Sequence record: ON210139.1
Origin: Escherichia phage EC128
DNA: 64,000 bases
Reading direction: 5' to 3' (one strand)
The notes below the pieces were generated by a model that saw only the letters and a list, made by a program, of their open reading frames with translations, made no database searches and was not told the origin of the DNA. The translations under genes and the position numbers were made by a program. Shown in pieces: positions 45,425 through 48,636 of the stretch (position 1 is its first letter; each line of letters starts with the position of its first letter).

Positions 45425-45455
45425 GTTTACTTTTCCTCTTGACTGTGGTATAATT
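45425..45455 (+). promoter_or_regulatory. Early promoter for regB
   Basis: -35 GTTTAC, extended -10 TGGTATAAT. Confidence 0.65.
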
Positions 45456-45950: not shown

Positions 45951-46496
45951 ATGAGAAAAGCACTACTCGCTGGTCTATTGGCCATTTCTATGATGGCACA
46001 TAGCTCCGAGCATACTTTCAGTAATGTCCAACTCGATAACATGCGTTACGCGTATCAATTCGGGGAACAATTTTCCAAGGATGGAAAATATAAAACACAT
46101 AAAAATATCCACAAGAGCGGATTAGGTCATATAATGGCTGCTATTTTATGGCAAGAAAGCTCTGCCGGAGTTAATTTAAAATCTAAACCAAAGCATCATG
46201 CCTACGGAATGTTCCAAAACTATTTGCCGACCATGCGAGCAAGAGTTAAGGAACTTGGTTATAATATGACCGATGCTGAAATAAAAAGAATGTTGAATAA
46301 ACGGTCCAATTCAGCTTCCTGGGCGTACATTGAACTTTCTTATTGGTTAAATATACATAAGGGCGATATAAGAAAAGCAATATCCTCTTATAATTCGGGA
46401 TGGAATGTTAAAGCAGGTTCTAAATATGCTTCTGAAGTCCTAGAAAAGGCTAACTACCTTAAAAATAATAAACTGTTGGAAATAGTAAATGACTAA
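45951..46496 (+). CDS. vs.1: Secreted lytic-transglycosylase-like protein
   Basis: 181 aa ORF with N-terminal signal peptide MRKALLAGLLAISMMAHS and a QESS motif reminiscent of SLT-domain catalytic Glu; T4 vs.1 position. Confidence 0.6.
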   Translation: MRKALLAGLLAISMMAHSSEHTFSNVQLDNMRYAYQFGEQFSKDGKYKTHKNIHKSGLGHIMAAILWQESSAGVNLKSKPKHHAYGMFQNYLPTMRARVKELGYNMTDAEIKRMLNKRSNSASWAYIELSYWLNIHKGDIRKAISSYNSGWNVKAGSKYASEVLEKANYLKNNKLLEIVND

Positions 46497-46830
46497 AATT
46501 TTGGTTTTATGTGTAGGATTAATTTCATTTTCTGCGTTAGCAGATATATCATATTCTGAAGTTAGAGAGTATGTAAACCGTACTGCCGCGGATTATTGTG
46601 GGAAAAATAAAGCATGCCAAGCTGAATTTGCGCAGAAATTAATATATGCATATAAAGACGGAGAAAGAGATAAATCAAGCAGATATAAAAATGATACATT
46701 GTTAAAACGATATGCTAAAAAGTGGAATACTTTAGAATGTTCAGTTGCGGAGGAGAAAGATAAAGCCGCTTGTCATTCAATGGTTGACCGTTTGGTAGAT
46801 TCTTATAATCGAGGATTGAGTACTAGATGA
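46489..46830 (+). CDS. vs: Valyl-tRNA synthetase modifier-like protein with signal peptide
   Basis: 113 aa ORF with N-terminal signal-like MTKILVLCVGLISFSALA; T4 vs position and similar size. Confidence 0.55.
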   Translation: MTKILVLCVGLISFSALADISYSEVREYVNRTAADYCGKNKACQAEFAQKLIYAYKDGERDKSSRYKNDTLLKRYAKKWNTLECSVAEEKDKAACHSMVDRLVDSYNRGLSTR

Positions 46831-47306
46831 TTGTAAAATATATCAAGGGCGATATTGTCGCCCTATTTCTTCAAGGTAATATTATTGCGCACGGGTGTAA
46901 CTGTTTTCATACTATGGGTTCAGGTGTAGCGGGTCAATTAGCAAGGGCCTATCCTAAAATTTTAGAAATAGATAAAACCACTACCGAGTACGGTTCTCGT
47001 GATAAATTAGGCGATATGTCTATTGTTTTTAAACATAATCCTACAGGATTTGGTATATGCTATAACCTGTATACACAATACGAACCGGGTCCTAATCTTG
47101 ATTATGGTGCTTTAGTAAACTGCATGATAGAATTAAATCTACAGGCAGAGACTCTTTTGTTTAAACCAGTAATTTACATTCCACGCATAGGTTGTGGTAT
47201 TGCTGGCGGCGATTGGGATAAGGTTTCTAAATTAATCGACATGTTTACTCCTGATATTGATTTGATAGTGGTGGATTATGAAAGTACATTACCCGCATCC
47301 GTTTGA
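46827..47306 (+). CDS. Macro-domain protein (ADP-ribose binding / processing)
   Basis: N-terminal KGDIVA...IAHGCNCFHTMGSGVAGQLARAYP and C-terminal IPRIGCGIAGGDWDKV resemble macro-domain diphosphate-binding loops. Confidence 0.6.
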   Translation: MIVKYIKGDIVALFLQGNIIAHGCNCFHTMGSGVAGQLARAYPKILEIDKTTTEYGSRDKLGDMSIVFKHNPTGFGICYNLYTQYEPGPNLDYGALVNCMIELNLQAETLLFKPVIYIPRIGCGIAGGDWDKVSKLIDMFTPDIDLIVVDYESTLPASV

Positions 47307-47490
47307 TCCTAAAAACAAAGCGGAAATTATTCGTCAATGGGAACGCATTTGCCGTACTAAATGCCCAATTAATAGTCCTCATGATGTAGATAAAGACTAT
47401 ATTGGAACATTCGTTGAATATACCTTTATTGATAGGAAAGGTCGTAAACAACATGTAGAAGAATATTGCTTAAAGGTTACATGGTTATGA
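47278..47490 (+). CDS. Hypothetical protein
   Basis: 70 aa ORF overlapping neighbours. Confidence 0.4.
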   Translation: MKVHYPHPFDPKNKAEIIRQWERICRTKCPINSPHDVDKDYIGTFVEYTFIDRKGRKQHVEEYCLKVTWL

Positions 47491-47693
47491 GCCAAACTAG
47501 TATTCTTAAAAATGCCCATTGTGAAAATTGTAAATGGCCTGTTGTTTTTGCTTTATGTAATGATGAAATGGCCTGTGATTTTGACTATTGGTGCTATTGT
47601 TCTAATAAAGGATGCATCAATCATAAAGGTGAAGGATTTTATTCAGGATTTTATCCTTATCCTGATTTCGTTAAAGAAGGTAAACCAAAATGA
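47466..47693 (+). CDS. Cys/His-rich small protein
   Basis: 75 aa ORF with CENCKW...CNDEMACDFDYWCYCSNKGCINH metal-binding-like pattern. Confidence 0.45.
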   Translation: MLKGYMVMSQTSILKNAHCENCKWPVVFALCNDEMACDFDYWCYCSNKGCINHKGEGFYSGFYPYPDFVKEGKPK

Positions 47694-47863
47694 ATAATTT
47701 TGAGTTACAATATGAAGTGTTACGTGAACTTGATAATTTAATTGAACTCGCTGTTAATAAAGGTTTTGCCATTGGAATTGGTCAAAAAGATACTGATCAT
47801 TTAACTATGGAAATATTTAAGCAAAAACGAATTATTTTAAAACTTCTGGAAATTAATATATGA
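47690..47863 (+). CDS. Hypothetical small protein
   Basis: 57 aa ORF (below track cut-off) filling the gap, ATGA overlap with the next ORF. Confidence 0.35.
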   Translation: MNNFELQYEVLRELDNLIELAVNKGFAIGIGQKDTDHLTMEIFKQKRIILKLLEINI

Positions 47864-48045
47864 GTCTGAGCAAAGAACAAAAAGATAAATTGTTTGAGCT
47901 TATCCATGAACTTCTAGATGAGCATACAGAAGTAAACACCTTTTATGATGAATACGGCCCGCTATCTCCCGAACAGCAAGAAGAATTTGCTGACCGGTTT
48001 GATAAGAAAGAAAACGAATTAATAGCTTATGTGAATACGCTTTAA
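47860..48045 (+). CDS. Hypothetical acidic protein
   Basis: 61 aa ORF. Confidence 0.4.
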   Translation: MSLSKEQKDKLFELIHELLDEHTEVNTFYDEYGPLSPEQQEEFADRFDKKENELIAYVNTL

Positions 48046-48054
48046 GAAGGTGAT

Positions 48055-48636
48055 ATGGCGAGTTTAATTTTTACTTATGCGGCAATGAATGCTGGAAAAT
48101 CTGCTTCTCTTTTGACTGCTGCACATAATTATAAAGAACGCGGAATGAGTGTATTAGTTCTTAAGCCTGCTATTGATACTCGCGATTCTGTCTGTGAAGT
48201 CGTTTCTCGCATTGGAATTAAGCAGGAAGCGAATATTATTACGGATGATATGGATATTTTTGAGTTCTATAAATGGGCTGAAGCACAAAAAGATATTCAT
48301 TGTGTATTTGTAGATGAGGCCCAGTTTTTAAAAACTGAACAGGTGCATCAATTAAGCCGAATTGTTGATACATATAATGTTCCTGTTATGGCTTATGGGC
48401 TAAGGACTGATTTCGCTGGAAAATTATTTGAAGGTTCTAAAGAACTTTTAGCGATTGCAGATAAACTTATTGAACTAAAAGCAGTTTGTCATTGCGGCAA
48501 AAAAGCGATTATGACAGCTCGATTAATGGAAGATGGAACACCAGTTAAAGAAGGTAATCAAATCTGTATTGGTGATGAAATTTATGTTTCTTTGTGTAGA
48601 AAACATTGGAATGAATTAACTAAAAAGCTCGGTTAG
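48055..48636 (+). CDS. tk: Thymidine kinase
   Basis: 193 aa ORF with P-loop AAMNAGKSASLL and C-terminal CHCGKK...C zinc ribbon typical of type II thymidine kinases. Confidence 0.93.
   Translation: MASLIFTYAAMNAGKSASLLTAAHNYKERGMSVLVLKPAIDTRDSVCEVVSRIGIKQEANIITDDMDIFEFYKWAEAQKDIHCVFVDEAQFLKTEQVHQLSRIVDTYNVPVMAYGLRTDFAGKLFEGSKELLAIADKLIELKAVCHCGKKAIMTARLMEDGTPVKEGNQICIGDEIYVSLCRKHWNELTKKLG

Follow-up and report, generated by a model that had tools for sequence, protein, structure and literature searches.

DarT toxins provide a widespread defence against phages by ADP-ribosylating DNA, and T-even phages escape it by means of orphan 'eraser' enzymes, AdfN acting against DarTG1 and AdfM against DarTG2. 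In T4, the NADAR protein AdfN (gp30.3) is effective against DarTG1 alone, and phages lacking both adfA and adfN are still resistant to DarTG2 (PMC11825919), so that another factor was to be expected. The gap left by that study was filled by a preprint of November 2025, in which tk.4 emerged from transposon sequencing of T4 as the sole gene to be depleted on a DarTG2-expressing host, a clean tk.4 knockout rendered T4 sensitive to DarTG2, and the gene was renamed adfM, for anti-DarT factor Macrodomain (bioRxiv 10.1101/2025.11.20.689424). The evidence for T4 AdfM is genetic, and the removal of ADP-ribose from DNA was inferred by the authors of the same preprint.

Enzymatic work has been done on other macrodomains. 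The stand-alone macrodomain SCO6735 of Streptomyces coelicolor splits ADP-ribose from thymidines in DNA and confers protection against DarT. Where DarG (K80) and TARG1 (K84) have their catalytic lysine, it carries an essential Gln85, which is held by Asn27 (PMC9411070). Human TARG1 also strips thymidine-linked ADP-ribose from DNA (PMC8501950). Among phage proteins, gp104 of PhiKZ was independently named 'AdfM' and in vitro frees a TNTC oligonucleotide of DarT2 adducts, with reduced activity of an Asn23 mutant (PMC13309987, 2026 Cell Reports).

Genomic context of the macrodomain gene

The window analysed here comprises 64,000 nucleotides of Escherichia phage EC128 (ON210139.1) and contains, on the plus strand, an ORF for a protein of 159 aa that a preliminary description had placed between vs and tk and interpreted as a macro-domain protein. 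The ORF list and direct reading of the sequence, including its ATG start codon, bore out the ORF, and its location was also right, with vs directly upstream and four small ORFs preceding tk at 48055..48636. The coordinates of all features are collected in the table below.

Features of the tk.4/adfM locus in the window
Feature	Position	Strand	Basis
tk.4/adfM orthologue, stand-alone macrodomain protein, 159 aa	46827..47306, stop codon included	+	ORF list, Pfam, AF2, Foldseek, T4 slot
ATGA start/stop overlap of vs stop and tk.4 start	46827..46830	+	direct sequence reading
Hairpin of 8 bp, AGGGCGATATTGTCGCCCT, with a U-rich run after it, 20 nt into the ORF	46846..46864	+	terminator-like scan
First glycine-rich/catalytic loop, residues 22-43, with H22, G23, N25, C26, G33 and A35 invariant	46890..46955	+	84 homologues
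Divergent cassette, DNA identity to T4 52-67%	46935..47300	+	sliding identity
Codons of N80-L-Y-T-Q84, with Q84 where DarG/TARG1 have their catalytic Lys	47064..47078	+	three MAFFT modes
Predicted diphosphate-binding loop, residues 118-133, IPRIGCGIAGGDWDKV	47178..47225	+	alignment; P119, G122, G124 and W130 invariant

The gene order is regB, vs.1 (SLT domain), vs, the macrodomain gene, tk.3 (DUF7202), three small ORFs and tk, and the neighbouring products comprise RegB, an SLT-domain protein, Vs, a DUF7202 protein, a phage zinc-binding protein, a DUF7438 protein and thymidine kinase. Because this order matches that of T4, where the same slot is occupied by Tk.4 (NP_049723, 155 aa), and because the two proteins align with 58% identity over 155 aa without gaps, the ORF is, judged by synteny and alignment, this phage's orthologue of T4 tk.4 (adfM), a known gene that had gone unrecognised in the preliminary description. 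The 2.8 kb around tk.4 share 98-99% identity with many Tequatrovirus genomes, and on these sequence grounds the source of the window is a Tequatrovirus.

The start codon of tk.4 overlaps the stop codon of vs in an ATGA motif, a layout also found in T4, and we infer that the two genes are translationally coupled through this overlap. At its 3' end, tk.4 shares 29 nt with tk.3 (47278..47490). A toxin-antitoxin arrangement with an adjacent ADP-ribosyltransferase or sirtuin was considered and rejected, since the eight ORFs neighbouring tk.4 include no gene for DarT, an ADP-ribosyltransferase (ART) or a sirtuin. The promoter scan returned 13 sites compared to 18.3 ± 3.7 in shuffled sequence, i.e. 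no enrichment, and the sole good promoter-like site (45426-45454) lies upstream of regB; we thus make no claim of a promoter or terminator belonging to tk.4 itself. The hairpin near the start of the ORF has a dG of -11.9 kcal/mol and a sequence identical in T4 and HY01, and it may be a mere by-product of the coding sequence.

Fold and classification of the protein

The assignment to the macro domains, which had been made from two glycine-rich loops, is corroborated by the Pfam score, by the predicted fold and its Foldseek matches, and by the conserved residues of the ADP-ribose loops. Both loops are present as originally described: residues 22-43 read HGCNCFHTMGSGVAGQLARAYP and residues 118-133 read IPRIGCGIAGGDWDKV. 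The match to the macro domains greatly exceeds what chance would give. The Pfam Macro model (PF01661) matches with E=5.8e-8 and 33.1 bits, above its gathering cut-off of 22, over model positions 2-117 (116/118 covered). A structure prediction had been proposed as a check, and the AlphaFold2 model, which was computed from an alignment of 84 homologues with the T4 sequence left out, has a mean pLDDT of 93.5 and a pTM of 0.89 and shows the three-layer alpha/beta/alpha macro fold. The predicted ADP-ribose binding site has its glycine-rich loops and conserved Asn in place.

When the model was compared to the PDB with Foldseek, 181 structures matched at E≤0.001 with macrodomains at the head, and the top 50 matches are all macrodomains or designs on a macrodomain scaffold, with TM scores of up to 0.84. 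Human TARG1/OARD1 (4j5r) is the best match (E=1.4e-10, TM 0.74/0.84), and DarG of Thermus aquaticus (5m31/5m3e; E=2.3e-9), DarG of Mycobacterium tuberculosis (5m3i; E=1.1e-8), both with TM of about 0.75, and SCO6735 (5e3b; E=2.9e-8) also belong to the matches, as do the structures of yeast Poa1p (6lfq-6lfu) and of BT1257 from Bacteroides (2afc/2fg1), both among the top ones. In a sequence search of the PDB, BT1257 scored best (1.6e-10). The hits of this search, like Foldseek ranks 1-26, all belong to the ALC1-like/TARG1-like class, and SARS-CoV-2 Mac1 first appears at Foldseek rank 27. By sequence and structure together, the closest relatives are TARG1, DarG, SCO6735, Poa1p and ALC1, and not MacroD, PARG or viral Mac1. 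On these comparisons and the predicted model, the window protein is a single-domain orphan macrodomain of the ALC1-like/TARG1-like class.

The match to Poa1p, which ranked third in the PDB sequence search (E=1.5e-9), bears on the question of the substrate. Poa1p is a known phosphatase of small molecules, and the main role of the window protein could accordingly be the hydrolysis of soluble ADP-ribose derivatives, with ADP-ribose-1''-phosphate, O-acetyl-ADP-ribose, ADP-ribose-based immune signals and toxic metabolites as candidate substrates. This idea underlies the annotation of the gene and hence its long-standing 'phosphatase / A1pp' label: T4 Tk.4 is recorded as 'phosphatase; contains A1pp phosphatase motif', and PHROG 335, which the window protein matches with E=1.6e-71, is named 'phosphatase'. 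Residues 7-83 of Poa1p align with the window protein through a near-identical HxCNC...G.G.A.QLA..YPK loop (HGCNC in the window protein, HSCNC in Poa1p), and Iyer et al. argued in 2022 that most phage macrodomains target low-molecular-weight, soluble ADP-ribose derivatives (PMC9503650); both points count against an action on DNA. Of the two Poa1p residues mutated in 6lfs and 6lft, His23 aligns in HMMER with H22 and Ser30 with Thr29, which is unconserved in the family; the C-terminal half aligned poorly. However, the 'phosphatase' label is a homology-transferred annotation that never came from an assay, and the similarity to Poa1p lies mainly in the N-terminal half. Since, in addition, the only known phenotype of an orthologue concerns DarTG2, a DNA modifier (bioRxiv 10.1101/2025.11.20.689424), we regard soluble derivatives as a distinctly unlikely main substrate. 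Activities on soluble substrates and on DNA could coexist in one protein.

Active-site residues

Residue equivalences were derived from a sequence alignment, on which three MAFFT modes agreed, of 83 family members with the PDB sequences of SCO6735, BT1257 and the T. aquaticus and M. tuberculosis DarG proteins, and with the verified TARG1 sequence. In this alignment, H22 of the window protein corresponds to H24 of SCO6735, N25 to N27 of SCO6735, N22 of DarG and N23 of PhiKZ AdfM, and G122/G124 to G126/G128 of SCO6735. In all three modes, Q84 falls on Q85 of SCO6735 and on the lysine of TARG1 (K84), DarG (K80) and the FPTK motif of PhiKZ AdfM. The catalytic dyad Lys84/Asp125 of TARG1 is replaced by Gln84/Ala126 in the window protein. 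A pairwise HMMER alignment to BT1257 placed the Gln region differently; this placement was set aside in favour of the family-anchored MAFFT alignment, because its three modes gave one result and brought the T-[K/Q] and N-x-x-x-Q motifs into register.

Among the residues that are invariant across the 84-sequence family are H22, N25, N80, Q84, P119, G122, G124 and W130. All 83 family members have Gln at position 84, as do all eight of the distant phage homologues, and the H/N/N/Q signature as a whole is kept in these eight, whose phages are from unrelated groups (Ounavirinae, Pakpunavirus, Saclayvirus, Stephanstirmvirinae, a 157-kb Salmonella phage, a jumbo phage, Tulanevirus and a Streptomyces phage). 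Three further residues, C26, D49 and Y82, are invariant in the Tk.4 family and absent from SCO6735 and BT1257. The importance of the shared residues has been demonstrated elsewhere: in SCO6735, Q85A is inactive and N27S and G128E lose activity (PMC9411070), and mutation of the conserved Asn lowers activity in SCO6735 and DarG (PMC9411070) as well as in PhiKZ AdfM (PMC13309987).

SCO6735 and BT1257 thus share with the window protein the ALC1-like class, a stand-alone organisation without a partner toxin, and a set of site residues comprising the Gln at the catalytic position, the Asn, the His and a GCGxAGGxW loop. The diphosphate loop of the window protein, GCGIAGGDW, equals the family consensus and resembles the GCGLAGGxW of both proteins. 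They differ from it in an overall identity of only about 25-28% and in being cellular proteins rather than products of a phage counter-defence gene. SCO6735 also has Lys34 and Lys89, which position the DNA and are replaced by Ser32 and Gly88 in the window protein, and a mobile loop after the Gln that is longer by 6-7 residues; these differences count against an SCO6735-like activity on DNA. Taken as a family trait, the aligned residues suggest that T4-type AdfM proteins are of a Gln type like SCO6735 and not of a Lys type like DarG.

Catalytically dead macrodomains can still interfere with DarT, as SCO6735 Q85A, DarG K80A and TARG1 K84A all inhibit the toxin in vitro, SCO6735 most strongly (PMC9411070). 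The window protein could therefore protect mainly without catalysis, either as an inhibitor that binds DarT2 or as a binder of ADP-ribosylated DNA or of ADP-ribose, and the cassette-like divergence of the gene described below would suit co-evolution with a binding partner. In contrast, H22, N25, Q84, G122 and G124 are strictly invariant even between distant phage families, which argues for enzymatic selection, and the window protein has no counterpart of the C-terminal DarT-binding domain of DarG, making protection of this kind highly improbable as its principal role.

Relationship to DarG and PhiKZ AdfM

For both the window and the T4 allele, the best-scoring model in NCBIfam and in PADLOC is that of DarG, in its macro part only. 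The NCBIfam DarG equivalog (NF048014) scores 27.8 bits, compared to a cut-off of 250, over model positions 2-142 of 338. The DarG proteins share with the window protein the fold, the conserved catalytic-site Asn and, as an inferred substrate, the thymidine modified by DarT2. They differ in carrying Lys80 in place of Gln84 (M. tuberculosis DarG likewise has a Lys, in all three MAFFT modes), in possessing a C-terminal DarT-binding domain within the 338-position model, and in being encoded beside darT, whereas the window protein is a macrodomain only. An identity as DarG was therefore rejected on the score far below the equivalog cut-off, the missing C-terminal domain and catalytic Lys, and the absence of a neighbouring darT.

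Gp104 of PhiKZ, a chimallivirus DarG2-like antitoxin, is likewise a phage-encoded orphan macrodomain directed against DarTG2, and its conserved Asn (N23) matters for activity. In contrast to the window protein, it is of the true DarG type with an FPTK lysine motif and is imported into the phage nucleus. This is reflected in the matches to M. tuberculosis DarG, with E=9.4e-25 for gp104 vs. 4.8e-5 for the window protein, while the two phage proteins are only marginally similar to each other (BLAST E=0.007-0.019, with E=0.007 over 33 aa). We thus rejected a close kinship with gp104, the only phage AdfM with enzymology. Judging from these sequence relationships, the name AdfM spans two lineages, a T4 type and a PhiKZ type.

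Divergence of the tk.4 alleles

The window allele and T4 tk.4/adfM share the slot between vs and tk.3, the length class (159 vs. 155 aa), the fold family, the nearly identical first 40 residues and the signature H22/N25/N80/Y82/Q84/G122/G124/W130. In contrast, 42% of the amino acid positions differ, including some in the diphosphate loop (GAGIGKGNW in T4), and the window protein has a C-terminal extension of four residues together with the overlap into tk.3. The flanking proteins are far closer to those of T4, with identities of 94% for Vs, 93% for Tk.3, 99.5% for Tk, 100% for rI.1 and 97% for rI. Sliding identity at the DNA level is approximately 100% up to about position 46,845 and at least 90% after about 47,320. 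The low identity in between, flanked on both sides by conserved sequence, shows that the C-terminal two-thirds of tk.4 were swapped as a cassette; this segment takes in most of the substrate-facing half, diphosphate loop included.

Both allele types are common, the window type occurring with at least 90% identity in 312 records and the T4 type, again with at least 90% identity, in 224 records, T2 among them. Sequences that match the window protein with an identity of 99% or more are found in 112 phage records. At E<1e-5, homologues are present in 2,777 of 50,697 phage records from many host genera, and with these records and 795 clusters the Tk.4 family is well covered. The gene has been deposited under the names 'Macro domain-containing protein', 'phosphatase', 'RNase III inhibitor' and 'Poa1p-like'.

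Predicted function in counter-defence

The preliminary description had offered three functions for the protein, namely the reversal of host ADP-ribosylation, the removal of ADP-ribose from DNA or protein in response to DarT-type defence, and the degradation of ADP-ribose-derived immune signals. Among these, counter-defence against DarT is favoured because T4 tk.4 is needed on a DarTG2 host, and it is supported by direct experiments in the syntenic T4 orthologue, both by transposon sequencing and by the knockout (bioRxiv 10.1101/2025.11.20.689424). No result of the present analysis supports the reversal of protein ADP-ribosylation or the degradation of ADP-ribose-derived signals. From the combined comparison, we consider it likely that the window protein hydrolyses DarT2-made thymidine-ADP-ribose on phage DNA with a chemistry like that of SCO6735. 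The DarTG2 phenotype is known from the T4 allele, and the 58%-identical window allele presumably has the same substrate, with the same roles for Q84 and N25; the 42% of positions that differ from T4 AdfM count against this reading.

In the proposed mechanism, the protein would be co-transcribed from the regB-vs.1-vs-tk.4 gene string, presumably early, and its translation would be coupled to that of vs. Once the host toxin DarT2 has attached ADP-ribose to thymidines in single-stranded phage DNA, the window protein would bind the adduct, with Asn25 locking Gln84, which in turn would hold the distal ribose, and with the glycine-rich loops gripping the diphosphate. Hydrolysis of the ribose-base bond would then be carried out by water and involve no catalytic lysine, freeing ADP-ribose and restoring replicable DNA, and the abortive defence by DarTG2 would thereby be neutralised.

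The target of the enzyme could also be protein. T4-like phages ADP-ribosylate many host proteins, which speaks for a role in protein de-ADP-ribosylation that would remove either marks imposed by the host or the phage's own Alt/ModA/ModB marks, tuning their effects. Alt, ModA and ModB modify arginine, which counts against such a role, as activity on arginine linkages is not reported in the studies of ALC1-like-class macrodomains consulted here; furthermore, no transferase gene adjoins tk.4. TARG1 and SCO6735 do act on Glu/Asp protein-linked ADP-ribose as well (PMC9411070), but no protein-related phenotype has been reported for T4 tk.4 (bioRxiv 10.1101/2025.11.20.689424), and we consider proteins a very unlikely target.

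Adducts on nucleic acids are possible substrates of ALC1-like macrodomains, and some defences use ADP-ribosyltransferases that target RNA (PMC11618068), so that the protein might instead remove ADP-ribose from RNA, e.g. by reversing the action of CmdTAC-type mRNA ADP-ribosyltransferases. However, CmdTAC reportedly defends robustly against T-even phages carrying tk.4 (PMC11618068). On this account, tk.4 evidently does not neutralise CmdTAC, and de-ADP-ribosylation of RNA appears extremely improbable.

Implications for AdfM in T-even phages

Previous work has already described the gene family, including its macro-domain nature and its role against DarTG2, and the exact protein is present in public phage records; the findings will be unsurprising to specialists. 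Modestly new are the diverged allele, the probable Gln type of the T4 AdfM family and the two lineages that appear to be united under one AdfM name. For annotation, the labels 'phosphatase' and 'RNase III inhibitor' that this gene bears in many phage records should be replaced. With Gln in place of Lys in the putative active site, SCO6735 would be a better mechanistic model than DarG, pointing to N25 and Q84 as the residues of interest.

A further possibility, which we put forward tentatively and consider rather unlikely, is that the two Tequatrovirus tk.4 alleles became non-interchangeable through an arms race and that the T4-type AdfM family represents an independent, lysine-free recruitment against DarT2. 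If this were true, the window allele would differ from that of T4 in what it reverses, be it the variants of DarT2, the sequence contexts or the linkages of ADP-ribose, and it may also differ in blocking the toxin through binding. The T4-type AdfM family, found in approximately 5% of sequenced phages, would then use a Gln/water chemistry unlike that of DarG and PhiKZ AdfM and would constitute a second macrodomain recruitment against DarT2. As a natural and strongly diverged AdfM allele, the window gene offers a ready tool for studying the determinants of specificity in this family.

Allelic variation in tk.4 and neighbouring genes

Divergence of the EC128 tk.4 gene from T4 is confined to the C-terminal two-thirds of the gene, with a DNA identity of 52-67% across 46935-47300, and the sequence flanking this segment is 90-100% identical to T4. 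This identity profile is that of a cassette-like allele swap within tk.4. The EC128-type and T4-type alleles, with 312 and 224 records, respectively, at a minimum identity of 90%, are both common among deposited Tequatrovirus genomes. The EC128 protein has a C-terminal extension of four residues (PASV), and tk.4 overlaps tk.3 in a different frame by 29 nt (47278-47306), compared to 4 nt (ATGA) in T4. Near the start of the gene lies a hairpin that T4 and HY01 share without a sequence difference; it may serve in attenuation or as a signal for RNA processing, or may be a mere by-product of the coding sequence.

Variability is also found in vs, where DNA identity with T4 drops to 82-88% in the 5' part (46492-46605), which encodes a signal-peptide-like N-terminus, and is 97-100% in the remainder. 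The tk.3-tk interval (47466-48045) differs from that of T4: it lacks a Tk.1 equivalent, and the second of its three ORFs has neither a Pfam match nor a local T4 match.

Features of the tk.4 region and tk.4 homologues in other phages
Feature	Sequence	Coordinates	Description
Hairpin	EC128	46846-46864	8-bp perfect AGGGCGATATTGTCGCCCT, then U-rich run; 20 nt inside tk.4 ORF; dG -11.9 kcal/mol
Cys-rich ORF	EC128	47466..47693	75 aa; Pfam Phage_zn_bind PF23895, E=7.5e-29
ORF	EC128	47690..47863	57 aa
DUF7438 ORF	EC128	47860..48045	61 aa; 54% identical to T4 Tk.2
Homologue	Pseudomonas phage PaZq-1 (locus L005)	1-783	two genes from nicotinamide phosphoribosyltransferase (NAD salvage) gene
Homologue	Acinetobacter phage HB01 (locus L006)	1-1036	baseplate-hub genes on one side, tail genes on the other
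gp165	Streptomyces phage Moab (locus L003)	1504-1977	Gln-type macrodomain

Relationships to other macrodomains

The name AdfM has been given to both T4 Tk.4 and PhiKZ gp104, and thus collides. The sequence relationship between the two is only marginal: gp104 (sequence from PMC13309987) is DarG-type, with the FPTK lysine and a match to Mtb DarG (E=9.4e-25), whereas T4 Tk.4 is Gln-type and SCO6735-like.

The homologues in PaZq-1 and HB01 lie in very different gene contexts. Moab gp165, which is very close to the cellular macrodomains SCO6735 (E=5e-36) and BT1257 (E=4e-39), has been described as a member of a sirtuin-Macro gene pair (Iyer et al. 2022, PMC9503650), a setting in which this Gln-type clade of macrodomains has different gene neighbours.
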